Notes under the pieces: model-generated | Seen by the model: the letters and a program-made list of their open reading frames with translations, nothing else | What the model was told of the DNA's origin: nothing | Database searches by the model: none | Translations under genes and position numbers: made by a program | Source: Mycoplasmatota bacterium WC44 | Lineage (GTDB): Bacteria > Bacillota_I > Bacilli_A > MAG-NZ | Assembly: GCA_046529715.1 (NCBI GenBank) | Contig: CP134881.1 | Location: forward strand, 918,803 to 982,802 | Length of the DNA: 64,000 nucleotides | Direction of reading: 5' to 3' | Part shown: positions 1 through 57,359 of the stretch, piece after piece | Layout: every line of letters begins with the position of its first letter | Numbering within the stretch: the first letter of the stretch is position 1

Positions 1-243
1 CGAGTACCTATAGATTTTGCAACCTATCTAGATTTTTATATTCCTGACGTAGGAAGTTATACTTTTGATTTTGTAATCAAATCAAAAGACTCAATTTATC
101 TTATTTATATAGGTGGTTTTGAACAATATGATTATATTTCTTTAAATAGTAAGAAGAGTTGGAATTCTTATATGAATTATGTTTTTGATTTAATACAGTA
201 CCGATTAATAAGGTGTGATAAGAATGAAAAGCTTATGGACTAA
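1..243 (+). CDS. 3' end of an upstream ORF running in from the window edge (frame 1, ...YIGGFEQYDYISL...KLMD*, stop 241-243)
   Basis: Open reading frame from position 1 to the TAA at 241-243. It overlaps the start of the next gene. No recognisable motif. Confidence 0.3.
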   Translation, partial: RVPIDFATYLDFYIPDVGSYTFDFVIKSKDSIYLIYIGGFEQYDYISLNSKKSWNSYMNYVFDLIQYRLIRCDKNEKLMD

Positions 244-1615
244 ATGTCAAATTATTAATACAGTTGATGTAAATGAAATCTATGTAAGTAAAAAGATTAA
301 AACAAGTCTTGGAAAAAATGTCGAATTTCGTTTTGGACAAAAAAAACAATATGTTACGGTGAATTCTTTCAATAATAATCAAGAATCACGACGTTTAGGA
401 ATGAAATATCAAAATCCTATAAGTGTTTACTTATCTAAATCTCTTGTCGATAAACTTTCTATACAAACAGACAATGTATATAGGTTGAACATTAAACAGG
501 GTGTAGTTGAACTTGGCCCTGTGATTGGATTATTACTAGGTGAGCAACAGTATTATTATCATGATGAATTTATGTCAGAGTATAAAGATGCTATGAAGAG
601 ATATGAAGAAGTAGGTGGGCTAGTATTAGCCTTCAAGACTTGTTCAATTGATTGGGATAATAAATCAATTTATGGTTTGTACTATAACCATAAAGATAAT
701 CAATGGAGTTATGGTAAGTTTCCTTTTCCTTCTGTCATATATAGAAGAGCTTTTAAAGCAACTCAAAATATAACGGATAAACTTTATAAGATGACTAATG
801 GAAAAATATTCAATGCTAATCGCTATAGTAAATGGGATATGTATAATATTTTAAAAGAAAATCGTAAATTAAAGAAGTATTTACCTGAGACTGAAGCACT
901 AGTTTCTATGGAAAGTTTCAAAAAATTTATTAATGAACATAATGATGTAATTCTAAAACCTGTAGGTTTATCTAGGGGGAGAGGAATCTGCATAATTAAA
1001 AAATTAGGGGAAGAATTGATGGAAATTCATGATTATGGTGATGGAAGAAATAGTACACAAGCAACTTTTACTAAAGAGGACATTATTTCATATGTAAAAG
1101 AAAGTGGTTTTATTAATAAGGACTATATTATGCAACCTTTTTTAAATTTTGCAAGGATTAATGGTTTACCATGGGATATTAGGATAGTTATGCAAAAAGG
1201 TGCTGACTTTAGATGGAAATGTAACGGAATTGAATGTAGAATCGCAGGAGTAAGTAACTTAATAACAAATATCTCTCGTGGTGGCCGTGCTGTATCGATA
1301 TCTAAGGCCCTTAAACTATCGTTCGGACCAAAGATTAAATCGTCAAAAGTAAAGAAAGAGATTATCAAAATATGTAAGGGGATTGCTGAAAATATGGATT
1401 CTGAAAGAGAAATATTTGCAGAGTTAGGAATAGATATAGCAATTGATCAAGAACAGAACTTTTGGATTATAGAATCCAATGTGCGTCCAACGTTTAATGG
1501 ATTCAGAAAGCATATGGAGTATGAAAATTATGTTTATCTGTGTACAGCCCCGATAGATTTCGCAAGTAGTTTAGCGGGCTTTAAAAGGAGTGATAAAAGT
1601 GAGACAAAAATATAA
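224..1615 (+). CDS. YheC/YheD-family ATP-grasp ligase, paralogue 1, with a ~95-aa N-terminal extension
   Basis: RBS AAGGTG at 210-215, ATG at 224. Core blocks LGPVIGLL, YLPETE, DIRIVMQKG, SNISRGG and WIIESNVRP are shared with the other YheC/D-like ORFs in the window. Confidence 0.75.
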   Translation: MKSLWTKCQIINTVDVNEIYVSKKIKTSLGKNVEFRFGQKKQYVTVNSFNNNQESRRLGMKYQNPISVYLSKSLVDKLSIQTDNVYRLNIKQGVVELGPVIGLLLGEQQYYYHDEFMSEYKDAMKRYEEVGGLVLAFKTCSIDWDNKSIYGLYYNHKDNQWSYGKFPFPSVIYRRAFKATQNITDKLYKMTNGKIFNANRYSKWDMYNILKENRKLKKYLPETEALVSMESFKKFINEHNDVILKPVGLSRGRGICIIKKLGEELMEIHDYGDGRNSTQATFTKEDIISYVKESGFINKDYIMQPFLNFARINGLPWDIRIVMQKGADFRWKCNGIECRIAGVSNLITNISRGGRAVSISKALKLSFGPKIKSSKVKKEIIKICKGIAENMDSEREIFAELGIDIAIDQEQNFWIIESNVRPTFNGFRKHMEYENYVYLCTAPIDFASSLAGFKRSDKSETKI

Positions 1616-2912
1616 TATACTTCCAAATTTACAATTTCGAAACAGGTTAACTGTACCTGATTGTAAATTGATTAGTGACGGAAGAATTAAAGGTTACATT
1701 CGGTTTGGTCATTATGCGCGAGAAATAGATATAGTGAGGTCTAACGAAATATCAAATGATCAGATATTAGTGTCTCAAAACATTATAGAGGAGTTGAATA
1801 TTCCAACAGCATCTAACTACGAAATTCGATTTGATGGTATTGATATTACAATAGGACCTTACATTGGAATCCTGGTATGCAAAAGACAAGAAAATCTCGA
1901 CTTAGTTGTTCAAAATCTATCTAATTACTTATATGATTATGATGATATTGGAGGACTTGTTATTGCATTTTCACAAGAAGGAATAGATATAGAAAAAGAG
2001 ATGATTAAAGGATATGCTTATAATCCACAAAGTACACTTTGGGAAGAGGGGACATTTTATTATCCTTCTTCAATTTTTAGAAGAGCTGGTCTAAGTGATA
2101 AAAAACGTAATTTCTTACACTCTAGACTGGGTGACCGTATGTTTAATAACTACATTTTTGATAAATGGGAAATGCATAAATGGCTATCTAACTCAATGCA
2201 ACATCATTTACCAGAGACAATAAGATATGAAAATCCTAAAGACATTATCTGGTTTTTATCAAGATTCAATACTGCCTATATCAAACCTATATATGGTAGC
2301 CAGGGTATGGGTATTATGAAAGTAACTAGAGAAAATGATATATATAAATTAGAAGCACAAGTAGACAATAAAGATATTGTGAAATATTTTGAAACAGATA
2401 GTAAATTAATGACTCACTTGAAGGGATACCATAAAAACAAAAGGTATATTATTCAGGAGGGTATAGATGTAATTAAGAAAGATAATATGATGATAGACTT
2501 TAGGGTTCTTCTAGTTAAAAATTACTCAGGTAAATGGACTGAAATGGGAATTATAGGTAGGTATGGTGAAAAAGCAAGAATTACTAGTAATATTTCAAGT
2601 GGTGGTAATGCATCTATGGGTAATGAAGTCTTAAGAGATATCCTCAATTTGACAGAGGAACAAATTTTAAAACTACGTAGTAAGATGAAAAAGATGGTAA
2701 TAGAAGCAGCTGAGAAAATAGAAAGCTGTGGTATTCATTGTGGTAATTTTGGTTTTGATATCGCTATAGATAAGAATTATAAGCTATGGATAATCGAAAT
2801 TAACAATAAAGATCCTAACCATACAATTGCTATTGATGCTGGTAATAGAGAGTTGTTTTACAAAACAAAAAAAATGAATATGCTTTATGCAAAGAAACTA
2901 GCAGGGTTCTAA
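1599..2912 (+). CDS. YheC/YheD-family ATP-grasp ligase, paralogue 2
   Basis: RBS AAAAGGAG at 1583-1590, GTG at 1599 (the ORF track begins at an upstream in-frame GTG at 1590). Blocks IGPYIGIL, HLPETI, DFRVLLVK, SNISSGG and WIIEINNKDP. It overlaps the stop of paralogue 1. Confidence 0.75.
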   Translation: MRQKYNILPNLQFRNRLTVPDCKLISDGRIKGYIRFGHYAREIDIVRSNEISNDQILVSQNIIEELNIPTASNYEIRFDGIDITIGPYIGILVCKRQENLDLVVQNLSNYLYDYDDIGGLVIAFSQEGIDIEKEMIKGYAYNPQSTLWEEGTFYYPSSIFRRAGLSDKKRNFLHSRLGDRMFNNYIFDKWEMHKWLSNSMQHHLPETIRYENPKDIIWFLSRFNTAYIKPIYGSQGMGIMKVTRENDIYKLEAQVDNKDIVKYFETDSKLMTHLKGYHKNKRYIIQEGIDVIKKDNMMIDFRVLLVKNYSGKWTEMGIIGRYGEKARITSNISSGGNASMGNEVLRDILNLTEEQILKLRSKMKKMVIEAAEKIESCGIHCGNFGFDIAIDKNYKLWIIEINNKDPNHTIAIDAGNRELFYKTKKMNMLYAKKLAGF

Positions 2913-2925
2913 AGGGGGATAAAAA

Positions 2926-4233
2926 ATGAAAATACGATTAAAAATGAGTAATTCACACGAACGTGTTTTAAAAATCTCGAACTCATTAGCCGAGATTATA
3001 GATAAAAACCGTGTTATATTACATTTTGGTCTGTGGAAAAGAGAACTTGCAGTAAGAGTAGATTCTGCATTACCTAAAGACACGATATCAATACAAAAAA
3101 AATTATTAGATTCTTTCTCAATGCCAGATCACTTGCTTTATGAGTTGAAAGTAGAAGGTATCAATCTGAACATTGGACCTATTATTGGATTTGTTCCTGT
3201 AGTTCGTAAAGAACTTCTTCATGAAAGGAACTTAGAGCGTTATAAGGAATACATGAAAAACTACTCTGATATTAATGGGTTAGTATATATGTTTGCTGCA
3301 AACAGTGTAAACTTTGAAAATCAGACAATTGATGGTTTTTATTATGATCCAATTGACGATATGTGGAAAGAAGGAGTATTTCCATTTCCAAATGCCATCT
3401 ATAGAAAAACTGGATTTAGTCAATCAATACTTGATGGTTTAACTACTACATTAGGTGATCGAATTTTTAACTCATACTTCTTCGATAAGTGGGAATTGTG
3501 GAACTGTCTATCAACAACACCACACATTAGTAAATATCTACCATATACTGAGAAACTACAAACAATAGATCAAGTAGATAAAATGCTTGAAAAGTATGGA
3601 TCAGTATACTTAAAACAAAGAGCTGGTCAAAAAGCGAAGGGAATTGTCAAATTACATAAATCAGAAGAAGGATATCATTTTGTCTATCGTTTAAGAGGAG
3701 AAAAAATAATTAACAATAATAATGAAGCGGAGAAATTCATTAAAGAATTGAACATAAAGAAAAACTATGTTGTTCAGCAAGCAATAGCTGTAAAACAATA
3801 TGATGAGAGAAACTTTGATTTTCGAGTTATACTTCAAAAAGACAATACTAAAGAATGGAAATGTCCTGGGATTATTGGTAGGTTTGGAAAAAAAGGAAGT
3901 ATAGCTACAAACTTCTTACTCGATGGATTTTCATTAAATGGTATAGAGAGTTTAAAAAAAGCATTTAATCTTAATAAACGAAAGGCTTTTGTTAAAGAAC
4001 AGGAAATAATTAGAGTTTGTAAAGAAGCGTGTGATTTACTAAATGAAAAAATGGGACAATACGGAGACTTGGGTATTGATGTAATGATTGATGAAAACTT
4101 AAAAGTATGGATATTAGAAATAAACAAACTTCATGATCATAAATTCCCACTATATGGATTAGATGATACTCAGATGTACTATAAAGTAATTTCAAATCCA
4201 ATACTTTTTGCTAAACGACTCGGAGGATTTTAG
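2926..4233 (+). CDS. YheC/YheD-family ATP-grasp ligase, paralogue 3
   Basis: RBS AAGGGGGAT precedes the start. Blocks IGPIIGF, YLPYTE, DFRVILQKD, TNFLLDG and WILEINK. The gap to paralogue 2 is 13 bp. Confidence 0.75.
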   Translation: MKIRLKMSNSHERVLKISNSLAEIIDKNRVILHFGLWKRELAVRVDSALPKDTISIQKKLLDSFSMPDHLLYELKVEGINLNIGPIIGFVPVVRKELLHERNLERYKEYMKNYSDINGLVYMFAANSVNFENQTIDGFYYDPIDDMWKEGVFPFPNAIYRKTGFSQSILDGLTTTLGDRIFNSYFFDKWELWNCLSTTPHISKYLPYTEKLQTIDQVDKMLEKYGSVYLKQRAGQKAKGIVKLHKSEEGYHFVYRLRGEKIINNNNEAEKFIKELNIKKNYVVQQAIAVKQYDERNFDFRVILQKDNTKEWKCPGIIGRFGKKGSIATNFLLDGFSLNGIESLKKAFNLNKRKAFVKEQEIIRVCKEACDLLNEKMGQYGDLGIDVMIDENLKVWILEINKLHDHKFPLYGLDDTQMYYKVISNPILFAKRLGGF

Positions 4234-4248
4234 AAAGGAGAAATGGAT

Positions 4249-4551
4249 ATGTCTTTACCAAAAAATCCGAATAGTAACCGCGCGATCTTTCTGAGAGAAA
4301 AACATATAAAAAACCTACTCCTATCATCAATTGCTTTAGAACAAATTGCTATAGCGAAAATTTTAAAAGCTGAAGGTGATAAGATTACAATGGTTATTGA
4401 TAAAAACTCATCAATAACAGACATTCTAGACGTTAATGAATCTGTTGAGAAGATTGTTAACGCTTCAGTAAAAAAAGGAATACTTCTTGAGTATAAAATG
4501 GATGACGTTTTAATAGAGGTATATTTCGATGACTGCAATGAAGAGGAATAA
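4249..4551 (+). CDS. small hypothetical protein (100 aa) ending ...VYFDDCNEEE; last gene of the ATP-grasp operon
   Basis: RBS AAAGGAG at 4233-4239, ATG at 4249 (the track starts at ATG 4243). A terminator hairpin follows. It sits 9 bp after paralogue 3. Confidence 0.5.
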   Translation: MSLPKNPNSNRAIFLREKHIKNLLLSSIALEQIAIAKILKAEGDKITMVIDKNSSITDILDVNESVEKIVNASVKKGILLEYKMDDVLIEVYFDDCNEEE

Positions 4552-4611
4552 TAAATTTGTCAAAAATTACTGTTCATCATGAGCTAAAGTTAATATGCAA
4601 GTATAAGACTA

Positions 4612-4638
4612 AAAGTGATTATTAATGATCACTTTTTA
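4612..4638 (+). terminator. rho-independent terminator
   Basis: Hairpin agtgat/atcact followed by a T-run. Confidence 0.5.
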
Positions 4639-4933
4639 ATTTCTACTGTTAAGAGATACGTGTATTCTAGGTTATTGGTATTACATGTTTATATAAATAT
4701 AAATATATATTCAAAATAAAGTTAAACTATATTTAAAGCGTTTATTTCCCTTAAAATCAATAAATATGTCTATTTCTTGCAACTGTAGACTTAAAAAAAA
4801 TTAACTACTTATAGGTATATTTTTATATTTTCTTTATGATAGCGTTTTTAAGTTGTTATTTAACACAAAATAATATACCCTTAATAGGGTCTATGTAGAA
4901 AAATGTATAAATTTAAACAATTTAGAGGTGTTT

Positions 4934-6754
4934 ATGAGAAAAGATATAATTAATATAGCTGTGGTTGCGCACGTTGATGCCGGTAAATCCACATTGGTTG
5001 ATGCACTATTATCCCAAAGTGGAACAGAAAAGGTAGATGTAGAACAAATAATGGATAGTAATGACCTAGAACGTGAAAGAGGTATTACTATTTATTCAAA
5101 GAATTGTTCAATTGAGTATAATGGTATTAAAATAAATATCGTTGATACACCAGGACATGCTGACTTTTCATCAGAAGTTGAACGAATTATTAAAACTGTA
5201 GATACAGTTGTTTTATTAGTCGACTCAAGTGAGGGTCCGATGCCCCAAACTAGAGTAGTTTTAAAGAAAGCTCTAGCGAGAGGTTTAAGACCAATTCTTT
5301 TAGTAAACAAAATTGATAAAAAAGATCAAAGAGCTGAGGAAGTTGTTGATATGACATTTGATTTGTTTGCAGAACTAGGTGCAACAGAAGAGCAACTTGA
5401 TTTTCCAATTTTATATGGAATTGCAAAACAAGGTATTATTAAAGAAGAAATTGATGATGATAGTAACACATTAGAACCTTTGTTTAAATTATTGTTAAAT
5501 CATGTGGAAGTTTATCCTGACTACACAGATGAAGATTTACAAATGCAAGTATCTTCTCTAAGCTATAGTGAGTACTTAGGGAGACAAGGTGTTGGTAGAA
5601 TCAATAAAGGTATGCTTAAAAAGGCTTCAATTGTCTCAGTATGCAAACGTGATGGTACTGTAGTTAAGTCAAAGATAGGTAGAATTTATATTAACGAAGG
5701 ATTACAGAAAAAAGAAGTCGATGTTGTATATTGTGGTGATATTGTGACATTTACTGGTATAAGTGATATATTAATTGGTGATACAGTATGTAAAGTTGAT
5801 AATCCAATTCCTATGGATATTATCGAGATTGAAGAGCCAACTATGTCCATGAACTTCTTGGTAAATGATTCACCATTTGCTGGATTATCTGGAAAATATG
5901 TTACATCAAGAGAAATTTTGGAACGTCTTGATAAAGAACTAGAAACAAATGTTGGATTAAGAGTAGAACCACTAAGTGAAAAAGGTGGATTAAAGGTATC
6001 AGGTCGTGGAGAATTACATTTAAGTATTCTAATAGAAAACATGAGAAGAGAAGGTTATGAACTATGCGTATCAAAACCTGAAGTACTTCTACGCGAGATA
6101 GATGGAACTATTAATGAACCATTTGAAAAAGTAATTGTAAGCGTACCAAACGAATATTCTGGTAGTGTCATTAATCAATTGAATGTTAGAAAAGGTATCA
6201 TGAGTTATATGGATTCTGATGGTAGTTATACAAAACTTGAATATTTGGTTCCAACTCGTGGTTTAATAGGATACAGAAGTGAATTCATTAATAGCACTCA
6301 TGGTGAAGGTATTATTGAAAAGTCATTTGATTGCTACAAACCTTATGTAGGTAAGATACAGTCAAGACAAAATGGTGTATTTGTTGCTAAAGAAAATGGA
6401 ACAGCAATGACTTACTCTTTACTTTCCTTAAGTGAACGTGGGGTAATGTTTGTTGAACCAGCAACAAAAGTATATACTGGAATGATTGTTGGGATGAATA
6501 GTCGTGACAATGATTTAGTTGTTAACCCTTGTAAAAACAAGCAATTATCAGCAGTTAGAACAGCTGGGACTGATAATTATGTGAAGTTGAAAGAAACAAA
6601 AAAATTCACTTTAGAACAAGCATTAGAATTTATTGAGCAAGATGAGTTTGTTGAAATCACACCTGACGATATAAGATTAAGAAAAAAATTATTAGTTGAG
6701 AGTGATCGTAGAAGAGCTAGTAAAACTTTACGTCATGAATCGCTAAATACTTAG
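4934..6754 (+). CDS. typA: TypA/BipA translational GTPase
   Basis: G-domain AHVDAGKSTL, DSNDLERERGITI, DTPGHADF and NKID. The C-terminal region has EFIEQDEFVEITPDDIRLRK, which is typA-like. RBS AGAGG, ATG at 4934. Confidence 0.85.
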   Translation: MRKDIINIAVVAHVDAGKSTLVDALLSQSGTEKVDVEQIMDSNDLERERGITIYSKNCSIEYNGIKINIVDTPGHADFSSEVERIIKTVDTVVLLVDSSEGPMPQTRVVLKKALARGLRPILLVNKIDKKDQRAEEVVDMTFDLFAELGATEEQLDFPILYGIAKQGIIKEEIDDDSNTLEPLFKLLLNHVEVYPDYTDEDLQMQVSSLSYSEYLGRQGVGRINKGMLKKASIVSVCKRDGTVVKSKIGRIYINEGLQKKEVDVVYCGDIVTFTGISDILIGDTVCKVDNPIPMDIIEIEEPTMSMNFLVNDSPFAGLSGKYVTSREILERLDKELETNVGLRVEPLSEKGGLKVSGRGELHLSILIENMRREGYELCVSKPEVLLREIDGTINEPFEKVIVSVPNEYSGSVINQLNVRKGIMSYMDSDGSYTKLEYLVPTRGLIGYRSEFINSTHGEGIIEKSFDCYKPYVGKIQSRQNGVFVAKENGTAMTYSLLSLSERGVMFVEPATKVYTGMIVGMNSRDNDLVVNPCKNKQLSAVRTAGTDNYVKLKETKKFTLEQALEFIEQDEFVEITPDDIRLRKKLLVESDRRRASKTLRHESLNT

Positions 6755-9646: not shown

Positions 9647-10054
9647 ATGATTAATATTAAAAAGAAAGTGGCTTTTGTTTGTATTCATAATTCGTGTAGA
9701 AGTCAAATGGCTGAAGGTTGGGCTAAAGAAATAGGTAAAGGTATCATAGATGCATATTCAGCTGGTACAGAAGATTATCCTAGTCCAAAACCTATGGCAG
9801 TAGAAGTAATGGAAGATGCTGGAATAGATATGAGTCTACACACTTCAAAATTAATTGAGGATATTCCTGAGATTGATATCTTAGTGACAATGGGATGTGG
9901 TGTTGAATGTCCATATGTACCATGCGAACATAGAGAAGATTGGGGTTTGACTGATCCAAGTGGTGGACCTAAATCTGAATTTGAAATAACAAGAGACATT
10001 ATTAAAGAGAAAGTAATTGATCTATTAGAAAGAATAGAAAGAGGAGAATTATAA
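9647..10054 (+). CDS. arsC: arsenate reductase, LMW-PTP/thioredoxin-coupled type
   Basis: CX5R P-loop in VCIHNSCRSQMAEGW. Confidence 0.85.
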   Translation: MINIKKKVAFVCIHNSCRSQMAEGWAKEIGKGIIDAYSAGTEDYPSPKPMAVEVMEDAGIDMSLHTSKLIEDIPEIDILVTMGCGVECPYVPCEHREDWGLTDPSGGPKSEFEITRDIIKEKVIDLLERIERGEL

Positions 10055-11070
10055 TGAATTTATTTTCAAAGTATTTAACACTATGGGTGGCTTTATGTAT
10101 TGGAATTGGTGTGACTTTAGGTAAATTAATGCCAGGGGCTGTTGATTATTTAGAAACATTTACATACGCTCAAATATCAATTCCAATTGTAATATTAATT
10201 TGGGTAATGATTTATCCGATGATGCTAAAAATTGACTTTACATCTATAAAAGATGCATCAAAAAATCCAAAGGGATTAGTGGTAACAACTGTTGTTAATT
10301 GGTTAGTTAAACCTTTTACAATGTACTTGATTGCTTACTTTTTCTTCTTTGTGGTATTTAAGTCATTAATCCCTGAAACTGCAGCACAAGAGTACTTAAT
10401 TGGTGCTGTATTATTAGGTGCTGCGCCTTGTACTGCTATGGTTTTTGTTTGGAGTCACTTAGTGAAAGGAAGTTCAGCATATACTGCTATTCAAGTCGCA
10501 TTAAATGATTTTATATTATTGTTTGCATTTACTCCGATTGTGGCGTTACTGTTAGGAATATCTGATATACAAATTCCATATGACACACTGTTCTTGTCAG
10601 TACTTTTATTTGTTGTAATACCGATTATAGTTGCATACATTACTAGAAGAGTTATCAGTAATAATAACAAGATCTCATTAGATGTTTTTATTGGTAAGTT
10701 CAATGGAATTCCTGAAGTAGGACTTTTACTTACTCTAGTCTTAATATTTATGTTCCAGGGTGATGTTATCTTAAATAATCCATTAGATATCCTATTGATT
10801 TCAGTACCTTTAATTATTCAAACAATATTTATTTTCTTTGTAGCTTACATCTGGAGTAAGGTTTGGAAAATGAAGCATGATGTTGCTGCTCCAGGAGCGT
10901 TAATTGGTGCTTCGAATTTCTTTGAACTTGCTGTAGCGGTTTCAATAGCTTTATTTGGATTGAATTCTGGAGCGACTTTAGCTACGGTAGTGGGTGTTTT
11001 AGTTGAGGTTCCTTTAATGTTATTCTTAGTTAGTATTGCTAAAAAGACTACGAACTGGTTTAAGTTTTAA
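10054..11070 (+). CDS. acr3: arsenite efflux transporter, ACR3 family
   Basis: 10-TM protein with ACR3-like sequence. The start overlaps the arsC stop (TAATG). Confidence 0.8.
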   Translation: MNLFSKYLTLWVALCIGIGVTLGKLMPGAVDYLETFTYAQISIPIVILIWVMIYPMMLKIDFTSIKDASKNPKGLVVTTVVNWLVKPFTMYLIAYFFFFVVFKSLIPETAAQEYLIGAVLLGAAPCTAMVFVWSHLVKGSSAYTAIQVALNDFILLFAFTPIVALLLGISDIQIPYDTLFLSVLLFVVIPIIVAYITRRVISNNNKISLDVFIGKFNGIPEVGLLLTLVLIFMFQGDVILNNPLDILLISVPLIIQTIFIFFVAYIWSKVWKMKHDVAAPGALIGASNFFELAVAVSIALFGLNSGATLATVVGVLVEVPLMLFLVSIAKKTTNWFKF

Positions 11071-12207: not shown

Positions 12208-13215
12208 GTGAAAAGGATTGCGGGAGTTTATTTAATCTTAGCTATGGTACTATTAATTAGTGCTTGTAGTGATAAATTATTAACAATTAGTGTAATAGAG
12301 GAAAACGAAACTAGTGAAAATATTGATACTAATGAAAAAGAAGATGATAAGGGAGAGGATGAAGTTATAACTGAAGTACCATCGTATAATGAAATTGAAT
12401 TTATTGATATTACTGGTACATTTATTAATGGAGAAGTTGTATTGAAATTATCTATAAGTAATGAAGACAAGTTTCAAATTAACTCATTACAAATAAATGG
12501 AGAAACATACAATGAATTTGAATCTAACAATGATAATACTGAAATGATTCTTAATATTGATGAAGGTTTAAATGTAGGAAATAAGTTATACGAACTAAAT
12601 GCGATATATTATGGTAATGATATAGTGGATTTTGAAGAAATTGTGGTAGAAGATAACACAGTTGATATTACGATAACTTATAATATAAATGGTTATGAGT
12701 TTTTACAAATCCCTCAATTTCCTATGGATTATGTAAGAGTAACTGCAGTATATCATAGTAAATCATATTACAATTACTATGGAGTCACTCATAAAGGAAT
12801 TGATATGGGGGGGGCTGATGGAGGCTATGGAAATGATGAGATATTTTCAATTGCAGATGGTGAAGTAGTCCACATCAGTAACAGTAGTACTGCAGGAAAG
12901 TATATTGTTATAAAACATGATAATCTAATAAATGGACAAACTGTAATCAGTAGGTATTTACATTTGGATAAATATGAAGATTTTAGTATAGGAGACACGA
13001 TTCAAAAAGGTCAACTAATAGGTATAGAAGGTAAAACAGGTAAAGTTGATGGGGCACATTTACATTTTGAGATGTGGATAGCTCCTCCAGGTTATGACTA
13101 CTATTATTACGATATAACTTATTACGCGGTTGATCCGAATTTTTACCTATTCGTAGATGATTTTCAAACTTTAAGTACTACTTCATTAGAAGAAGAAATT
13201 ATTAAAATAAAGTAA
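12208..13215 (+). CDS. M23-family zinc metallopeptidase lipoprotein
   Basis: Lipobox LISAC. HxxxD motif in VTHKGIDMGG and HxH motif in GAHLHFEMW. RBS TAGGAGGA, GTG start. Confidence 0.75.
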   Translation: MKRIAGVYLILAMVLLISACSDKLLTISVIEENETSENIDTNEKEDDKGEDEVITEVPSYNEIEFIDITGTFINGEVVLKLSISNEDKFQINSLQINGETYNEFESNNDNTEMILNIDEGLNVGNKLYELNAIYYGNDIVDFEEIVVEDNTVDITITYNINGYEFLQIPQFPMDYVRVTAVYHSKSYYNYYGVTHKGIDMGGADGGYGNDEIFSIADGEVVHISNSSTAGKYIVIKHDNLINGQTVISRYLHLDKYEDFSIGDTIQKGQLIGIEGKTGKVDGAHLHFEMWIAPPGYDYYYYDITYYAVDPNFYLFVDDFQTLSTTSLEEEIIKIK

Positions 13216-13416: not shown

Positions 13417-14439
13417 TTAAATCTCATTATCGTCTTTATTTGTATTAACTCTATAAATACTATACTTGATTAGATTTTTAATATGGTTAATATTATCCGA
13501 GAAAAGAACTGGTAATCCTGGTCTCCAATTTACTTCAATGAGATATAATTTATTTGATTTATCGATACACACATCTACACCTAATTGGTTAAGTTTATTA
13601 TTATAGTGCTCATCAAGATATTCAGATATTTGTAGACCGAAGACTTTTAAATTATTATATATGTTTAACCATTTATCTTTGAATTGATTTTTTAAATAAA
13701 GTTCAATATTAGCAGAGTATCCTCCTTGACTAATGTTGGACACTTTATTTTTTTTATCTCCAATCCTAGGATATATTGTTGTGATAACATACTTTCCTTT
13801 CTCGTTTTTTTGTGTATGAATTCTAAAATCTGCAGGTAATCCTTCATTTGTTTCAGAAACTATGAATTCTTGTGCTATATATTTAGTTAATTTAATTTCT
13901 GATAATTGTTTTGTTAAATTATCCATTACTTCCTCGTTCTCACCATAATTTATTATATAGGATTTATTATGTTTAGTGATAAAAAAAATTCGCTGTCCTT
14001 TGCACCCAACTGAAGGTTTTAATACTACTCTTTTATGTTTATCCATAAACTTTACTACACGTTTTTCGGATCTAGCTACAATACTCTCGGGCAAATAGTT
14101 TGTGAAAATAGGATGATCATGTAAGAGCTTTTGAATGTAATTTTTATTATGTATTTTAGATTCAGTAAAAGGAATTTCCTTTCTTAACCTAAGGCTAACG
14201 CTAAGCTGTTTTGGTGTTCTTGGACCAGTCATATTGATTATTATATCCGGATATGGAAATGTTTTTTGTTTCCATTCTCTTTCATAGTAATAACCTTCTA
14301 TTTTTCTGTTTTCAAAGTCTACTTTCCCTGGAGAAAAGTAACAAAAATCTACACCTTCCATTTTAGCAGCGGCAGCTAAAGTATAAAGCTTCGCTATTTT
14401 TGTAGGATCTTTGCGAATATGCATTACTCCGATTAACAT
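13417..14439 (-). CDS. YheC/YheD-family ATP-grasp ligase (short form, 340 aa, no N-terminal extension)
   Basis: LIGVM start of the core, YLPESI, DFRIHTQKN, SNISQGG and YLIEVNWRPG. The ATG overlaps the stop of the upstream gene (TAATG). Confidence 0.7.
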   Translation of the reverse strand: MLIGVMHIRKDPTKIAKLYTLAAAAKMEGVDFCYFSPGKVDFENRKIEGYYYEREWKQKTFPYPDIIINMTGPRTPKQLSVSLRLRKEIPFTESKIHNKNYIQKLLHDHPIFTNYLPESIVARSEKRVVKFMDKHKRVVLKPSVGCKGQRIFFITKHNKSYIINYGENEEVMDNLTKQLSEIKLTKYIAQEFIVSETNEGLPADFRIHTQKNEKGKYVITTIYPRIGDKKNKVSNISQGGYSANIELYLKNQFKDKWLNIYNNLKVFGLQISEYLDEHYNNKLNQLGVDVCIDKSNKLYLIEVNWRPGLPVLFSDNINHIKNLIKYSIYRVNTNKDDNEI

Positions 14440-15626
14440 TATGAATCCTCCTTTAATTGAAAGTTAATCTCATCAACTGCATTTAGTGAATTATCTTTTG
14501 CTTCTATATTATCTTTTCCTGTAGCCATAACATATCCAATTCTATCCCCCATGTGATATGGTTCTACTACATGATTTCCCTTTCTAGGTTTAACGTAAAC
14601 TTTTAAAACACCTTCACTATTTAAAGCTGAATTTTTTCCAGTTACTTTTTCTAATACACCAGAAATATTAGATGTTAAATATTTATTGAAAATATCTTTT
14701 TTGACGATTGGTACAGTAAAATCCATACCTAGATAGAATTTTACTACTTGTTCAATATAATTAGTATCAGTTGCGTACTTAATAATATGGCTAATACTTC
14801 CACCAGCAGCTCTAGGGTTGATCTCAATTAATTTGCATGACTCTTCATCTTCCCTTACTTCAATGTGAAAATCACCATTTTTAAAATTAAGTTCGTCTAT
14901 AATGATTTGAATCATACTCAGTTCACTTTCCGAAATAATTGTGTTTTTATCTAGGGTGTAACCAACAACTATAAAAGTGTTGTTTTTTGTTAACAATACA
15001 TCCTGCTTTATTTTAATAATAGAAATAGGTTTACTATTTCGAACGAATACCTCAATTAAATACTGATCCTTATCTATATAATCTTCTATGAAAACATCAT
15101 GTGATTTGTAAAATTTTGTTGAAATGTCCTCTATTGAATTAATAAGTTTTACATCTCTAGATGCTGTGGATATTCTTTTCTTAATGATTAGTGGAAACTT
15201 TAATACATGTACATTATCATCTTTTAAAGTTATTTCCTTAAAGTATGGTGTAAATGGATAGTTCCGTAATTTAATTCTTGTCAATAACTTATCCTCCATT
15301 ACTCCTATGGCATTTGATTTGGATGGATTTTTAGTATATTTATCCCTTAATCTAGATGCAAGTGTACTGTAACCATCTATAAAGCTTAATATTGTTCCTA
15401 TTTTAAAACAGTCATTCATCTCTGTATCTAGATATCTGCATATATTTTTATAGTTAAGTTCTTCGATATATATCATATCGTGAACATCTGTATATTCTTC
15501 CCTTTGTTTTAGTTGCTTTTTATTATTAGTTAACAAAATTGTGTACATATTTAATTCTTCGCTAGCCCTGATTGCTTCCCTACTTGTACCAGATTTAGCT
15601 GTTTGAATAAAAATTATCACCTTCAT
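14439..15626 (-). CDS. ATP-grasp domain protein (L-amino-acid-ligase/carboxylate-amine-ligase-like)
   Basis: EINPRAAGG ATP-grasp block with a pre-ATP-grasp N-terminal domain. RBS GAGGTGA, ATG at 15626 (the track starts at GTG 15635). Confidence 0.6.
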   Translation of the reverse strand: MKVIIFIQTAKSGTSREAIRASEELNMYTILLTNNKKQLKQREEYTDVHDMIYIEELNYKNICRYLDTEMNDCFKIGTILSFIDGYSTLASRLRDKYTKNPSKSNAIGVMEDKLLTRIKLRNYPFTPYFKEITLKDDNVHVLKFPLIIKKRISTASRDVKLINSIEDISTKFYKSHDVFIEDYIDKDQYLIEVFVRNSKPISIIKIKQDVLLTKNNTFIVVGYTLDKNTIISESELSMIQIIIDELNFKNGDFHIEVREDEESCKLIEINPRAAGGSISHIIKYATDTNYIEQVVKFYLGMDFTVPIVKKDIFNKYLTSNISGVLEKVTGKNSALNSEGVLKVYVKPRKGNHVVEPYHMGDRIGYVMATGKDNIEAKDNSLNAVDEINFQLKEDS

Positions 15627-15808
15627 AAATATCACCTCAATATATAATATGAAATAATAAAATTCAGGTGTAGTAATAATTAACTAGTATTTTCTAATTA
15701 ATAATGTAACTAAAAGCAGTGAAATAAAGGTTATAATAAACTTTATTTTTTCTAAGAATGTATATAAAAAAGTATATTTCGTAAAATAATTTTACAAGGA
15801 GGATTAAT

Positions 15809-44769: not shown

Positions 44770-45033
44770 ATGGGAAAACATGTAAGAAGGGATTATATTT
44801 TTAAAAAGAGAATTGTAGAGGAAGTTTTGGGTGGTAAGTACACTTATTCTGAAGCAGCTGCTAGGTATGGAATTAGCAATAGAGGTACAATTTCTATTTG
44901 GAAAAAGAAATATCTTGAAGGTACTCTAGGAATAGATAATCGAGGGAAAAGAAATCAAGAGGTAACCAATGAAGAAATCTTAAAAAAGTGCTATGCTCTA
45001 CTGATGAAAATCCGTTCCAAGCAACAAGGATAG
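44770..45033 (+). CDS. IS3-family transposase OrfA (HTH)
   Basis: RBS GGAGG, ATG at 44770. Helix-turn-helix. Confidence 0.8.
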   Translation: MGKHVRRDYIFKKRIVEEVLGGKYTYSEAAARYGISNRGTISIWKKKYLEGTLGIDNRGKRNQEVTNEEILKKCYALLMKIRSKQQG

Positions 45034-45881
45034 AGAAGTATCAAATAATAGATGGTTTGAAACACATATATCCAGTTCAAAGATTATGTAGAGTTCTATT
45101 AATCACTAGACGAAGTTATTATTGGTGGCTTAATAGAGGTAAACCATTAGCTAATAACATTAATCAAAAAGACTTAGAACTATTCACAGTAGAGCACTTT
45201 AATACAAAAGAAGTTTATGGCGTTTTAAGACTAAAGTACCATATTCAAAGAAAATACGGATTTATATATAACCACAAGAAAATAAGACGTTATAAGCGAC
45301 TGTTCAATCTAGATACAATAACACGAAAAAGACGCCCTTTGTATCTTAGGACAACAAAAAAAGAGAGCCACTTAAATATGGCTCCCAACGTGCTTGATTG
45401 TAACTTTACCTCAGATAGCCCCTACCAAAAGTTATCGACAGATGTAAGTTATATCAAATGCACAGACGGTACATTGTACCTATCAGCTGTTAAAGATCTC
45501 TTTAACAATGAAATTGTATCATATTCAATATCAAATAGAAATGATGGAGAGCTAGTTAAAAAGACATTAGAGCAAATTCCTAAAGGGAATGGGATTATAC
45601 ACTCAGATCAAGGTGGATTATATTTTAGTTTACTCTATAGAATAAAACTAAAAGAGTTGGGATACACGCGTAGCATGTCAAGACGTGGTGCTTGTTGGGA
45701 AAACTCACCGATTGAAAACTGGTTCTCACAGTTAAAGGAAGAACACTTAAGACCAATAGGTAAAAAGACAATGAAAGTAACGAAACAGGAGATAAAAAAA
45801 TACATCCAATGGCATAACCATGAACGTATTCAAAAATCTTTAAACTACTTGACTCCTGTTCAGTATTTACAAAATGTATAA
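44988..45881 (+). CDS. IS3-family transposase OrfB (DDE/rve integrase), expressed by -1 frameshift from orfA
   Basis: HSDQGGLYFS and CWENSPIENWF blocks. Confidence 0.8.
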   Translation: MLCSTDENPFQATRIEKYQIIDGLKHIYPVQRLCRVLLITRRSYYWWLNRGKPLANNINQKDLELFTVEHFNTKEVYGVLRLKYHIQRKYGFIYNHKKIRRYKRLFNLDTITRKRRPLYLRTTKKESHLNMAPNVLDCNFTSDSPYQKLSTDVSYIKCTDGTLYLSAVKDLFNNEIVSYSISNRNDGELVKKTLEQIPKGNGIIHSDQGGLYFSLLYRIKLKELGYTRSMSRRGACWENSPIENWFSQLKEEHLRPIGKKTMKVTKQEIKKYIQWHNHERIQKSLNYLTPVQYLQNV

Positions 45882-46019
45882 GTTTTTTATTTAGTGTGTA
45901 CTTGACAGGTAGTAGTATCTTAATAGTTGTTTTTTTTACGTTCTTAAAAAGGTAAAACTATGTAATAGTTGTTTTCTATAGTATAATTATATGGAACAAT
46001 TATCCAAGGAGGAAAAGAT

Positions 46020-48173
46020 ATGAAGCCATATGTTACATTTATTAATAAGTTTAAGAAACCTTTATTTTTATTGTTTTTCCTCTTAAACATTATTTCTATA
46101 TTTGGTATTACTAAATTAAACATATCTACAGATTTCACTATCTTTATGCCAAATGAATCTGTACACAAAGAATATCTCGATGAGATGAATTCATATTTCA
46201 AGAGCGATGAACAAATGATTTTTATGATTGATTATAATGAAATTAATATAGAGAATTTGGAAAGTATTTTTATATTAGATGATTACTTATCAAGTTTTAC
46301 TTCAATTGAGTTTTTAAACTCACCTGCTTTAGAAGTTCTATATATAGATGGAGAGATTGATGAAACTGATGTTGTTAATTTTGAGAACTACCTTAAATCA
46401 TTAAACGAATTGTCACCTGTCATAGAAAAGGATGGAAAGTATCATGCTATGTTTGTTGCCTTTATAAATGAGGAATTTAATAATGATGATTTAACGAGTA
46501 TTAGAGAATATTTATCTGATAATGACTACAGATACTCTATTAGCGGAAATAAGTACTCAGAAATGGAAATCCTTAATTTTATTATAAAAATAGTTATTAT
46601 ATTTCCACCACTAGCCTTGCTACTAATTTTATTTGTATTTAGATTACAGATGAGATCCATGAATGCAACCTTACTTTCTGTATTACCAGCAGGTATCGGT
46701 TCATTGTGGACTATGGGACTATTGGGGCTGTTAGGTAATGAATTATCATTAGTTACAGTGTTGGCTCCAATATTTACTATTGTTATTGGTAGTGCTGATG
46801 GATTGCATTTTATGTCTCATATGCAAGAATCTGAAGAAGAAGGAAATTCTAGATTTGATTCGACTGTTAAAACTTTAAAAATGGTTGGTATACCGATGAT
46901 TATTACTACCATTACTTCAGTGTTTGGTTTCTTGTCACTAATAGCAATGAAATCTGACTCAATTATGGCTTTAGCTACATCTGCATCTATTGGTATAACT
47001 TTTGCGGGTATTGCTACATGGTATATACTGCCTTTACTGTTAAGCAATAATATTGATATTTCAATAAAGTCAATATCAAGAAGAAATAGAGATTTAAGCT
47101 CATATCTAAAGAAGTTATGGGGTAAAAGAATAGTAATATTAACTGTCGCTCTCTTAGCAGGAAGTTTGTTTATATCTCAGTATATTAAAAGTGAGTTTAA
47201 CATGTTAATGATATATAAGGATAATACAGAAATTCAACAAAACTTTAAGCAAATTACAGCTATTAATGACGGATCACTTCCTTTGTATGTTTATTTTAAA
47301 ACCGATGATGATATTTTAGGACGTAATTCATATTTATTTGCTGAGGAACTAAGTAACAAGTTGCTTAAGTCCAATGCTGTATTTAGAGTAAACAATGGAT
47401 ATTCCATGATTCAATTAGTGAATGAGAAGATGAGTGGTAATCATGAATATCCAGAAAATGAAATGATTGCAAAAAATATATTCAATGTGTTAACAAAACC
47501 TGGTGCAGGTGTACCAATTACAGAATTTATTAGTACTAACGATAAAGTATTTAAAATTATGATATTCCCAAAAAATCAGAGTAATGAAACTTTAACAGAG
47601 ATTGAGAAAATAGTTGTTGATTCTAGTAACACTGATTATACTGCAAAAGTAACGGGTGTTCAGTACGTTATGAAAGATCTTAATGATGTTATTATTAAAT
47701 CTCAAATTATTACAGTTTTACTAGCTATTGCATTTGTATTTATATTGTTGTTAATCAGTATGAAAAGTTTTATCTTAGCATTGATTTCTTTGGTGCCTAT
47801 AGCGAGTACTACTGTTATGTTATTCGGATTCTTAGCTGTAACAGGAATATCATTAAATGTTGTAACAGCTACTATGTTTAGTATAAGTATAGGAGTTGGT
47901 ATTGATTATGCAGTACATTTCTCTTCTATATTTAAAGAATTAAAGAAAGATAGTGAAGTTGATGATGCTATAGAAAGCACTTTTAAATATTGTTCAAGAC
48001 CTATTATAGCGAATGCAACTGGGATAGCTATTGGATTAAGTGTTTTAATTTTATCGCCGCTTACAATCCATACTTATTTATCATCTTTAATGTGGTTTTC
48101 AATGATAATTTGTTTAGTACTAAGTTTATCTTTACTTCCAACTATTCTGAAATGGTATTATAAAAATATATAA
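46020..48173 (+). CDS. MMPL/RND-superfamily (SSD) membrane transporter
   Basis: 717 aa. Two 6-TM bundles, each preceded by a large extracytoplasmic domain. Confidence 0.7.
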   Translation: MKPYVTFINKFKKPLFLLFFLLNIISIFGITKLNISTDFTIFMPNESVHKEYLDEMNSYFKSDEQMIFMIDYNEINIENLESIFILDDYLSSFTSIEFLNSPALEVLYIDGEIDETDVVNFENYLKSLNELSPVIEKDGKYHAMFVAFINEEFNNDDLTSIREYLSDNDYRYSISGNKYSEMEILNFIIKIVIIFPPLALLLILFVFRLQMRSMNATLLSVLPAGIGSLWTMGLLGLLGNELSLVTVLAPIFTIVIGSADGLHFMSHMQESEEEGNSRFDSTVKTLKMVGIPMIITTITSVFGFLSLIAMKSDSIMALATSASIGITFAGIATWYILPLLLSNNIDISIKSISRRNRDLSSYLKKLWGKRIVILTVALLAGSLFISQYIKSEFNMLMIYKDNTEIQQNFKQITAINDGSLPLYVYFKTDDDILGRNSYLFAEELSNKLLKSNAVFRVNNGYSMIQLVNEKMSGNHEYPENEMIAKNIFNVLTKPGAGVPITEFISTNDKVFKIMIFPKNQSNETLTEIEKIVVDSSNTDYTAKVTGVQYVMKDLNDVIIKSQIITVLLAIAFVFILLLISMKSFILALISLVPIASTTVMLFGFLAVTGISLNVVTATMFSISIGVGIDYAVHFSSIFKELKKDSEVDDAIESTFKYCSRPIIANATGIAIGLSVLILSPLTIHTYLSSLMWFSMIICLVLSLSLLPTILKWYYKNI

Positions 48174-48223
48174 ATAACTATTCTAGTTTTAAAAAATAAT
48201 TAATTTACTTATTAAAAGAGCAA

Positions 48224-48252
48224 AAAAAACAACTGAATTAAGTTGTTTTTCT
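48224..48252 (+). terminator. rho-independent terminator
   Basis: aaaacaact ... agttgtttt hairpin followed by a T-run. Confidence 0.75.
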
Positions 48253-48313
48253 ATGTTATAGTTATTATATATAAATATAAAAAAGGAGTGCAGATATTAA
48301 TTCTGTAAAAAAT

Positions 48314-49000
48314 ATGAGATTAGATAAATTTTTAACTAAATGTGGACTTGGTACTAGAAGTGAAGTTAAAGTACTCTTGAAGCAACGTAGGATAAAAGTA
48401 AATAATATAATTACTTCAATAGGTAAAACTGAAATAATAGATCAAGTTGTTTATTTTGATGATTTATTACTAGAATATAAGGAATTTGTTTATATAATGT
48501 TAAATAAACCACAAGATGTAGTATCAGCGACTAAAGATAATCTTCACAAAACGGTTGTAGATTTAATTGAAGGGTATTCACACTACGATTTGCATCCAGT
48601 AGGTAGGCTAGATATAGACACTGAAGGATTAGTGATTTTAACTAATGATGGAAAGTTAACTCATAATATTATTTCACCAAAGAAGCATGTTCCAAAGAAA
48701 TACTATGTAAAACTAAGAGATGAAATTCATGAAAATTCAGTCATTCAATTTAAAGAAGGAATTACAATTGATGATTATAAATGTATGAGTTCGGAACTTG
48801 AAATCATAAATGAAAGAGAAGTCGAATTAACTATCTTTGAAGGAAAGTTTCATCAAGTAAAAAGGATGTTCTTAACTCTAGGAAATAAAGTAGTTTATCT
48901 AAAAAGGTTATCTATAAATAATGTTGTTTTAGATGATGATTTAAATATTGGGGAGTATAGAGAATTAACTAACGAAGAACTGAAAACCTTAAGTAAATAG
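48314..49000 (+). CDS. rsuA: 16S rRNA pseudouridine synthase RsuA-family (S4 domain plus PSUS)
   Basis: N-terminal S4 domain (MRLDKFL...GTRSE) and catalytic GRLDIDTEGL. Confidence 0.8.
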   Translation: MRLDKFLTKCGLGTRSEVKVLLKQRRIKVNNIITSIGKTEIIDQVVYFDDLLLEYKEFVYIMLNKPQDVVSATKDNLHKTVVDLIEGYSHYDLHPVGRLDIDTEGLVILTNDGKLTHNIISPKKHVPKKYYVKLRDEIHENSVIQFKEGITIDDYKCMSSELEIINEREVELTIFEGKFHQVKRMFLTLGNKVVYLKRLSINNVVLDDDLNIGEYRELTNEELKTLSK

Positions 49001-49043
49001 AGTTATCTTTCAAGTTATATATACCTATTTATGAACTTTTACA

Positions 49044-49080
49044 CAAAAAAAGAAGTGTAAAGGGGGGACACTTCTTTCTA
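49044..49080 (+). terminator. probable terminator (weak T-run)
   Basis: aagaagtgt ... acacttctt hairpin. Confidence 0.45.
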
Positions 49081-49240
49081 CACTACAATTCTAATCTATT
49101 AGAGGGGAGGAGAATTGTATTTCATATAGTTGTTATAATACTCTGTTACAATTATATAATATATTTACCATATTGTTTTTTCAAGAAATATGCTCATATC
49201 ATTTTGAAAAATAAAAAAAAATGGTAAAATTAAATAAAGT

Positions 49241-49615
49241 ATGGAGGGAATTATGAGAAAATTATCTGAGTCAATAGAAGATTATATAGAACACATATAT
49301 TGCCTAAACAGTGAAAAGGGAGTAAGGATTACTGACTTGGCTGTGAGAATGAACGTTACGAAAGCAAGTGCTACCGATGCAGTAAAGAAATTAGTAGATT
49401 TTAAATATGTGAAGCATCAAAAATATGGGAATGTATTTATTACTAAACTGGGTGAAGGAATAGCAAAGAAAATCCTTGAAAAACACAATATTATTACTAA
49501 ATATTTGATAGAAGTACTTGGAGTTGATCCAGTTACTGCAGAGACCGATGCTTGTAAGATCGAACATATAATAAGTGAAACAACATTTTCAAAGTTGAAG
49601 GAAAAAGTAGAATAA
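49241..49615 (+). CDS. DtxR/MntR-family metal-dependent transcriptional regulator
   Basis: N-terminal winged HTH and a dimerisation domain, no SH3. The start could be ATG 49253. Confidence 0.65.
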   Translation: MEGIMRKLSESIEDYIEHIYCLNSEKGVRITDLAVRMNVTKASATDAVKKLVDFKYVKHQKYGNVFITKLGEGIAKKILEKHNIITKYLIEVLGVDPVTAETDACKIEHIISETTFSKLKEKVE

Positions 49616-49646
49616 AAAAAAGCCTTTTTAAAAAAGGCTTTTTAAT
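49613..49646. terminator. bidirectional terminator between convergent genes
   Basis: aaaagcctttt-taa-aaaaggctttt. Confidence 0.8.
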
Positions 49647-49652
49647 TGGATT

Positions 49653-50981: not shown

Positions 50982-51190
50982 TTCCCCCTTTGGAAAATAT
51001 TATATATTATCGACTTTTTATTAACAACAAAAATACAGTAACATAAGTTACCAATTTTTGTCAGCAAATAAAATAAGTATTTCTGATGTTTCGACAGAGT
51101 TCGTTAATATTCCTTTAAGTTGGAAATATTTAGATAAAAATTGTCATTAAGATTTAAAAGTGGTATAATTAGGAAGGATTGAGGTGCATT

Positions 51191-51790: not shown

Positions 51791-51808
51791 AGAAGAGTGG
51801 TGAAGATT

Positions 51809-53342: not shown

Positions 53343-53347
53343 AAAAA

Positions 53348-53377
53348 TGGACTTTCGTGTTAGAAAGTCCTTTATTA
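53348..53377 (+). terminator. rho-independent terminator
   Basis: ggactttc ... gaaagtcc hairpin followed by TTTATT. Confidence 0.65.
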
Positions 53378-53422
53378 AGTATTAATATAGTAACTATAAA
53401 GATAATATAAAAGAGGTGAAAC

Positions 53423-55926: not shown

Positions 55927-55981
55927 TGGTAATGCTACCCGTATAGTAGACAGGAAATTAAAACCTTCCTGTTTTTTTGTT

Positions 55982-57060: not shown

Positions 57061-57359
57061 ATAAAAATGCACCTCTTTTTAGTAGGATAACAGTTTTTTA
57101 TTTCCTGTCTACTAAATGGGGTGCATATTCTAATTCCCGTAGGTTTTTTTATATTAATTTCTTCAAAAAGTCTAAAATCAATATATATTTCTAAAATCAT
57201 CTACACTTAATTAAGTTTATTAAGTATTTTTATCTTCATTTACTATTTTTTTATATAATTTAAAATATATTTCAATTAATTGACCATAATCGTAATTAGT
57301 GAAAAGTAGCTTATTTATCTATAATTGTCTTACACCGGTGATGTTTGAAAGGAGATAGT

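Follow-up and report, generated by a model that had tools for sequence, protein, structure and literature searches.

What do the ATP-grasp ligases of the YheC/YheD family act on? The enzymatic role of these spore-coat proteins has never been found. The question is raised by a stretch of 64,000 nucleotides from Mycoplasmatota bacterium WC44 (contig CP134881.1, positions 918,803 to 982,802 of the forward strand; "the window" below), which begins with a cluster of YheC/YheD genes followed by a gene for a 100-amino-acid protein with an acidic tail. We find that the small protein is a predicted homolog of A-ENA, the subunit of a spore fiber that was presented in 2026 as self-assembling, and that the ligase genes belong to a conserved module of four paralogs. 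This operon link offers the first candidate substrate for the YheC/YheD enzymes. We tentatively suggest that the ligases act enzymatically on the tail of the co-encoded fiber subunit; it is almost as probable that the genes are co-regulated and not coupled enzymatically.

Five tightly packed genes at the start of the window

The features of the cluster are as follows.

1–243, + strand: the last 80 or so codons of a divergent fourth YheC/YheD-like paralog, from the frame-1 translation and its alignment to the first genes of related modules
224–1615, + strand: ligase g1, 463 amino acids, a YheC/YheD ATP-grasp protein whose N-terminal double-psi beta-barrel contains an insertion (PF14398)
1599–2912, + strand: ligase g2, about 437 amino acids from GTG 1599 or 440 from GTG 1590 (PF14398; g2 orthogroup)
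2926–4233, + strand: ligase g3, 435 amino acids, the barrel followed by the ATP-grasp N-domain and core (PF14398)
4249–4551, + strand: A-ENA family protein, 100 amino acids (PF26595), with the tail EVYFDDCNEEE encoded at 4516–4548
4611–4643, + strand: AT-rich hairpin resembling an intrinsic terminator (RNA folding)

A preliminary description of this DNA, made from the letters alone, had proposed three tandem YheC/YheD genes, and the profile searches bear this out. The three proteins match PF14398 (ATPgrasp_YheCD) with 217, 232, and 226 bits, as compared to a cutoff of 26.8 bits, and cover profile positions 2–255 (E from 1e-64 to 1e-69; 3.3e-64 for g1 and 7.6e-69 for g2). They are only 27–29% identical to each other in pairwise alignments. 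The G+C content of the window is about 29%.

The genes are tightly packed. The upstream open reading frame (ORF) stops at 243 and so overlaps the ATG of g1 at 224 (an alternative start lies at 215), and the stop of g1 at 1615 overlaps the start of g2. For g2, we favor GTG 1599 over GTG 1590 because an AGGAG is spaced 8 nucleotides ahead of it. The gap between g2 and g3 is 13 nucleotides, and the gap between g3 and the small gene is 15 nucleotides if translation starts at ATG 4249 or 9 nucleotides if it starts at ATG 4243. The first of these starts matches both the MSLP N-terminus of the family and a 100-amino-acid database entry, while the second would give 102 amino acids. Thus, the overlap and the 13-nucleotide gap in the preliminary description stand, but the last gap is more likely to be 15 nucleotides than the 9 it gave.

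The small protein does end in EVYFDDCNEEE, and a terminator-like element does follow its gene: the hairpin at 4611–4636 has an 11-bp stem followed by UAAUUU and a predicted folding energy of -12.6 kcal/mol (z of -3.26 relative to shuffled sequences). It escaped a strict terminator scan, which demands at least three G-C pairs, because it has few of them. The spacing of all five genes fits a single transcript. The proposal of one operon therefore holds in that the arrangement is a conserved, operon-like module (see below), but what had been described as four genes is really five, with an extra paralog at 1–243.

The small protein is a homolog of a spore-fiber subunit

A-ENA forms an endospore appendage of the cross-alpha type, in which helical hairpins are stacked; its subunits are joined by ten autocatalytic intermolecular isopeptide bonds, and homologs may carry passenger domains such as collagen/C1q (Sleutel, Sogues & Remaut, Nat Commun 2026, PMC13111695). 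The small protein of the window carries a precomputed PF26595 (A_ENA) annotation, and a profile of its family matches the structure of "Ex vivo spore-silk A-ENA fibers" (PDB 9ihh_A) over positions 1–93 with E = 2.7e-27. A tblastn search linked it to the A-ENA gene on a plasmid of Bacillus thuringiensis subsp. israelensis (Bti) with E = 3e-5. A word-indexed search with the protein returned only the protein itself; an exhaustive HMMER (phmmer) search returned 406 representative clusters at E of 1e-3 or less, with matches spanning residues 1–88 to 1–99. Similarity to Tfx or SPT8 was considered and rejected, as it consisted of weak Pfam and NCBIfam matches only (E of 0.01–0.06). The preliminary description had treated the small protein as an uncharacterized carrier or tail acceptor; judged by these matches, the ORF instead encodes a homolog of the A-ENA fiber subunit.

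Members of this family share an N-terminal domain of about 90 residues (MSLPNIPDI...LLLASIALEE..LAHI.NAEGEKIQ...N.SVE...VIKKEMLLQFKLED). What follows this domain varies: there may be nothing; a short acidic, Cys-rich, or Lys-rich tail; or an S/T-rich, collagen-like, or DUF11/DUF7507-type region. Most of the passengers are structural (collagen-like, S/T-rich, or DUF11/CLIPPER).

To compare the isopeptide-forming positions, we aligned the window protein with its Bti counterpart from plasmid NZ_CP013279.1. Seven are kept (E28, E39, K42, N64, K76, K77, and K84), four have conservative replacements (E29Q, E41D, Q82E, and E86D), and two acceptors are lost (Q44T and E78G). In terms of bonds, the set K42-N64/E39 is intact; K84-E29/E28 and K76-Q82/E86 have the conservative replacements E29Q, Q82E, and E86D; and the acceptors of G2-Q44 and K77-E78 are replaced by T and G. 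The 100-residue protein has a single cysteine.

Three ligases with intact catalytic residues and a barrel domain

The refuting finding named in the preliminary description, a loss of ATP- or Mg-binding residues, was looked for, and these residues are intact in g1, g2, and g3. All three retain the lysine of the YLKP strand, the DxR motif, and the D-x13-E-x-N Mg triad. An alignment of 66 homologs, including the three window proteins, shows no variation at K230, D298, R300, D385, or E398 and at least 90% conservation of N400 (g3 numbering). In g1 we see LKP...GRGI, DIR..QK, TNISRGG, and GIDIAID...WIIESN, and the catalytic motifs of g2 are likewise intact. More than 256 homologs of g1 have E of 1e-40 or less. 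NCBI labels the YheC/YheD homologs "endospore coat-associated," and the named ones all come from genera that we take to be spore-forming. The closest relatives of the ligases, at 57–65% identity, are from metagenome-assembled genomes of Bacillaceae.

The preliminary description had each ligase carrying an N-terminal extension of its own. In fact, the extensions of g1, g2, and g3 align with each other and with those of hundreds of homologs of about 440 amino acids, which span 94–100% of the query; as judged from these alignments, long YheC/YheD proteins normally have this extension. In structure prediction, residues 1–85 of g3 (2926–3180) form a double-psi beta-barrel, and the ATP-grasp N-domain and core come next; the full-length model has a predicted local distance difference test score (pLDDT) of 95.2. 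Structure comparison matches the barrel to the N-domains of AAA+ unfoldases. In AAA+ proteins, the double-psi barrel N-domain binds substrates and adaptors, and we infer by analogy that the barrel may recruit a protein or peptide in these ligases.

A sequence search of solved structures found no match to the ligase family. By fold, the top Foldseek matches of the model are tubulin tyrosine ligase (TTL; 1.6e-10) and the ArgX-LysW complex (2.0e-10), with LysX also near. Weaker profile matches of the window ligases in Pfam and NCBIfam include TTL, GSH-S_ATP, ATPgrasp_ST, RimK-family, and MptN. The proposed relatedness to TTL-type ATP-grasp enzymes is thus upheld, in that TTL and LysX/ArgX are among the closest solved folds. 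TTL and LysX/ArgX act on C-terminal glutamates of proteins.

A degenerate fourth paralog

The frame-1 translation of 1–243 (...FDFVIKSKDSIYLIYIGG...) can be aligned to the gene that opens the module in each of five related loci (L001, L002, L005, L016, and L018). In those loci, the protein from this gene has lost the Gly-rich loop, has R/Y/H/N-x-G in place of the E-x-N Mg ligands, and retains only part of the DxR/QK region. By its motifs, the fourth paralog is probably a non-catalytic pseudo-ligase.

The four-ligase module is ancient, and A-ENA genes recur in it

We scanned one genome per species with an alignment of g3, which gave 30 loci, and searched their six-frame ORFs with our own hidden Markov models of both families. 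An A-ENA gene lies within 10 kb of the ligases in 8 of these 30 loci. We estimate that about 2% would be expected by chance, so this is far above chance.

Ten four-ligase modules were compared (the window and L001, L002, L115, L016, L005, L018, L114, L116, and L117; L115 was found by look-up). L001, L002, and L115 show the same order as the window: the degenerate paralog, three long ligases, and then A-ENA, with gaps of 15–18 nucleotides (or 9–10 nucleotides from alternative starts). In L016, the A-ENA gene is directly upstream of the four ligases. L118 has just three of the module genes and no A-ENA. In a neighbor-joining tree, g1, g2, and g3 fall into separate, position-specific orthogroups, with agreement among the window, L001, L002, L005, L016, and L018; g1 of the window groups with the genes that stand second in the other modules. 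Gene order is maintained among orthologs that are 39–65% identical. Because the position-specific orthogroups are common to Bacilli and Clostridium sp. N3C, the phylogeny indicates that the four-ligase operon is ancient, with its gene order kept across Bacilli and Clostridia.

The A-ENA proteins of the window, L001, L002, and L115 form a clade of their own in the tree, and this clade was seen in no place other than immediately downstream of the final ligase. The five module-linked A-ENAs (those of this clade and that of L016) have the tails DDCNEEE, DEHDEEE, EKTCDEE, LDHCDEE, and IDELEE: the terminal -EE is constant and the remainder of the tail varies. The A-ENA genes of L115 that do not adjoin ligases encode His- or Lys-rich tails. 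In the preliminary description, the small ORF was expected to persist beside the ligases with its acidic end. The acidic end did persist in all four of the other modules that have the gene, but five of the ten modules do not have it.

Three of the four A-ENAs that follow ligases have each lost different isopeptide positions (Q44T and E78G in the window, Q82H and K84Q in L002, and K76M and Q82L in L115), and in the A-ENA family at large, conservation at these positions is 90% or more. The A-ENA of L001 has all of the isopeptide positions.

Other arrangements that combine the two families also occur. Four Salipaludibacillus loci (L015, L019, L020, and L022) have 4–7 YheC/YheD genes and two A-ENA genes; Texcoconibacillus L031 has five A-ENA genes, a gene for a CLIPPER-domain protein, and three YheC/YheD genes; in L119, ligase and A-ENA genes are interleaved; and L081 has two A-ENA genes, an amidase gene, and a gene for a 572-residue YheC/YheD protein. 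Some of these clusters encode a second A-ENA subtype, MPxVPKQPYRPDL...ESIALEE...MKEFLLLRKLE, with a tail rich in Lys, Cys, and Pro (L015 16082–16501, L019 17538–18044, L020 17530–18036, L022 15640–16029, and L119 10871–11281). An A-ENA with an acidic tail is encoded nearby in each of these YheC/YheD clusters, which makes an acid/base pair of tails.

Mur-ligase-family genes lie in L115 (1956–3392) and L117 (5273–6670), and L119 has Mur-ligase-family and LPG_synthase_C (aminoacyl-tRNA transferase-like) genes at 1238–2632 and 5609–6598. These genes suggest that the clusters assemble or attach peptide chains.

Do the ligases act on the fiber tail?

We propose that the operon would serve spore-surface morphogenesis. 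The three active ligases would activate protein carboxylates as acyl-phosphates and so form amide bonds at the surface of the developing spore. They would probably work in a complex with the pseudo-ligase as a scaffold, and the beta-barrel domains would bring in the protein substrate. The likeliest substrate encoded in the operon would be the exposed acidic tail of A-ENA (...C-x-EEE). Amino acids might be added to this tail, in the manner of RimK, TTL, and LysX at C-terminal Glu, or ATP-driven isopeptide bonds might link it to the amines of neighboring fiber or coat proteins. Since A-ENA is missing from half of the modules, it would probably be one among several substrates. We think that this enzyme-substrate relationship is plausible, with a chance of being correct that is a little short of even; the evidence for it is genomic context only. 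A more specific version, in which YheC/YheD proteins modify or covalently anchor A-ENA fibers via the -EE tails, with each active paralog responsible for a different residue or bond and the degenerate one as scaffold, is more doubtful.

A number of observations weigh against an action of the ligases on A-ENA. First, ligase and fiber subunit do not co-occur consistently. A-ENA is missing beside five of the ten four-ligase modules (L005, L018, L114, L116, and L117). In the reverse direction, we scanned metagenomes with an A-ENA alignment and retained the best 80 loci, and only one of them (L081) has a YheC/YheD gene nearby; among the 35 that are 8 kb or longer, none does, within the flanks that are available. 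Second, tails that end in -EE, often with Cys, are present on about 15 of about 90 short-tailed A-ENAs that are not linked to ligases (roughly 17%; for example FEDCEE, KDDEECDEE, EECEE, and SDVCAEECEE). Third, Ddl, a ligase of the RiPP type (RiPPs are peptides made on ribosomes and modified after translation), synapsin, and GshB all come within about tenfold of TTL and LysX in Foldseek E value. Fourth, the A-ENA of Bti assembles and crosslinks in E. coli without accessory enzymes (PMC13111695). Fifth, the function of YheC/YheD is stated as unknown (PMC7911427), and such coat enzymes have been called "not necessarily active." Finally, the operon's own promoter lies outside of the window.

An acidic tail restricted to the ligase-linked copies was also considered, and it is ruled out by the unlinked A-ENAs with acidic -EE tails.

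The strongest alternative is that the genes are merely co-regulated. A late mother-cell operon would be shared by ligases that act on coat proteins, the cortex, or a small-molecule or peptide polymer and by an A-ENA that assembles by itself, with the acidic Cys/Glu tail serving for surface charge, metal binding, or disulfide formation. Roughly one chance in three seems fair for this explanation. It accommodates the autocatalytic assembly of Bti A-ENA, the modules that lack A-ENA, the near-absence of ligases from A-ENA loci, and the frequency of -EE tails away from ligases, and clustering of spore-coat genes by regulon is common. We also know of no A-ENA reported from B. subtilis, which has yheCD. 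Co-regulation accounts less well for gaps of 15–18 (or 9–10) nucleotides and an order that is kept among orthologs of 39–65% identity, for the dedicated A-ENA clade that is found in this position only, for the repeated, independent recruitment of A-ENA into differing types of YheC/YheD cluster, and for a terminal -EE that is kept while the tail otherwise varies.

It is also conceivable, but improbable, that the ligases form the isopeptide crosslinks of the fiber itself. They would make graspetide-like omega-amide bonds between Lys and Glu/Asp, which would either replace lost autocatalytic sites or join subunits with acidic tails to subunits with Lys/Cys-rich tails. The differing losses of highly conserved isopeptide positions in three of the four linked A-ENAs would fit with the first of these, the pairing of acidic with Lys/Cys/Pro-rich tails in the Salipaludibacillus and L119 clusters would fit with the second, and one of the top fold matches is to a RiPP ATP-grasp ligase. 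Yet L001 keeps every position, most of the donor, acceptor, and catalyst residues remain in the window protein, and the sites are buried in the stacked cross-alpha fiber, where an enzyme would have poor access.

Least likely is that the small protein is a dedicated LysW-like carrier or scaffold, or a RiPP-like precursor, whose sole role is to receive a chain built stepwise by the three ligases: the acidic C-terminus with its final Glu, the three distinct ligase orthogroups that could work in sequence, and the ArgX/LysX matches would suit this, but the protein is complete as an A-ENA subunit (the latch at the N-terminus, the two helices, and most crosslink residues are all present), it has neither a LysW-like zinc ribbon nor a leader/core organization, and the passengers of the A-ENA family are mostly structural.

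Expression and host

In B. subtilis, yheCD belongs to the sigma-E/SpoIIID regulon (PMC517825), and YheD forms a SpoIVA-dependent shell and interacts strongly with itself (PMC7725329; PMC7911427). A search of positions 1–4600 for sigma-K-like or sigma-E-like sites found none, and a sigma-70 promoter scan gave 39 sites as compared to 30 expected. In two related loci, a sigma-K-like AC-N17-CATAnnnTA lies directly upstream of the first ligase gene (L002 1117–1144 and L018 6107–6134); this pattern occurs five times in the 64-kb window. L005 has a -10-like element, CATACATAT, at the equivalent place upstream of its first gene.

When we sought sporulation genes within the window, we saw only housekeeping, transport, IS3, and cell-wall genes. 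Although the source of the window is labeled as Mycoplasmatota, genes for a D-Ala-D-Ala carboxypeptidase, an M23 peptidase, and members of two families otherwise tied to endospores are found in it. Either this is a walled, possibly spore-forming lineage, or the Mycoplasmatota label is a loose one.

Comparison with known systems

The window operon resembles B. subtilis yheC/yheD, which encode sigma-E/SpoIIID-dependent proteins of the basement layer of the coat, in that both are operons of tandem PF14398 paralogs. The window has four paralogs (one degenerate and three of the long form with the barrel) along with a fiber-subunit gene, and a host labeled as Mycoplasmatota. The window A-ENA and the "sporesilk" A-ENA of Bti (Q8KNV8, 9ihh) share PF26595, a length of about 100 amino acids, the latch MxxPxxP, two helices, and three of five isopeptide pairs that are kept or conservative. 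They are about 26–32% identical, and they differ in the acceptors lost from the window protein (Q44T and E78G) and in the tail, which is acidic and rich in Cys and Glu in the window but SSSPPSIS in Bti. Their genomic partners differ as well: ATP-grasp ligases in the window, but an amidase and Cry/Cyt toxins in Bti.

Like RimK with S6, TTL/TTLL with tubulin, and LysX/ArgX with LysW, the window ligases have the ATP-grasp fold, and the protein co-encoded with them ends in ...EEE. The candidate substrate in the window is instead a polymerizing fiber subunit, and the pairing is facultative (half of the modules). To our knowledge, RimK, TTL, and LysX do not have the double-psi beta-barrel that is present in the window ligases. 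LysW is a zinc ribbon of about 54 amino acids with an EDWGE-like C-terminus, whereas the window protein is a 100-residue helical-hairpin A-ENA homolog.

Like graspetides (microviridin-type RiPPs), the window pairs ATP-grasp ligases with a small protein that is conserved toward its N-terminus and variable toward its C-terminus, and a RiPP ATP-grasp ligase (7mgv) is one of the top structural matches. Unlike a graspetide precursor, the window protein has a fiber domain rather than a leader, its tail lacks a repeated T/S/K...D/E core motif, and no protease or exporter is adjacent. The barrel of the ligases is 7–19% identical to the N-domains of Cdc48/p97, VAT, NSF, and PEX1/PEX6. The window proteins have the barrel only, without the beta-clam half, and it is fused to an ATP-grasp enzyme instead of an AAA+ ATPase.

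Significance of the operon link

A literature search found no paper that links YheC/YheD with A-ENA, and the text of the A-ENA paper (PMC13111695) has zero occurrences of "grasp," "ligase," or "YheC." Neither family is new in itself; the novelty lies in their conserved linkage in an operon, in an architecture of four paralogs that includes a pseudo-ligase, and in the fold now assigned to the N-terminal domain. Reportedly, Iyer and colleagues in 2009 predicted that YheC/YheD proteins modify spore-wall or capsular proteins, and the Pfam entry predicts a modification of spore-wall proteins.

Our working ideas are that a Cdc48-N-like barrel may recruit the substrate, that the pseudo-ligase may act as a scaffold, and that enzymes may tune or anchor the tails of the fiber. 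If the ligases do act on A-ENA, this would give a first biochemical function and a first substrate to a family of spore-coat enzymes that has been unexplained since 2004, and it would place an enzymatic layer atop a fiber that was thought to be purely autocatalytic. If the genes are only co-regulated, the small ORF would still be annotated correctly, and an ancient, fixed-order operon of four YheC/YheD paralogs would still be defined.

Other genes in the window

The 340-amino-acid YheC-like gene at 13417–14439, which the preliminary description had noted as lacking the N-terminal extension, indeed has no barrel: the protein begins at the Rossmann-like N-domain, and the gene is on the minus strand. 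It overlaps by 1 nucleotide with a gene for a 398-residue ATP-grasp protein of the L-amino-acid-ligase type (PF18603 LAL_C2 and PF13535), and the two together span 13417–15635 (minus strand). An M23 peptidase gene (12208–13215) adjoins this ATP-grasp pair, which could be a small peptide-synthesis unit.

Two IS3-family transposase genes lie at 44988–45881 (+ strand) and 55982–56782 (minus strand); their products are 35% identical in alignment. Genes for YfmF and YfmH, which are associated with the modification of elongation factor P, are in the same part of the window (44988–62339). At 9647–11070, genes for an ArsC-like low-molecular-weight phosphatase and an SBF/ACR3-type transporter overlap by one base; they are probably an arsenic-resistance pair that is unrelated to the ligase module.

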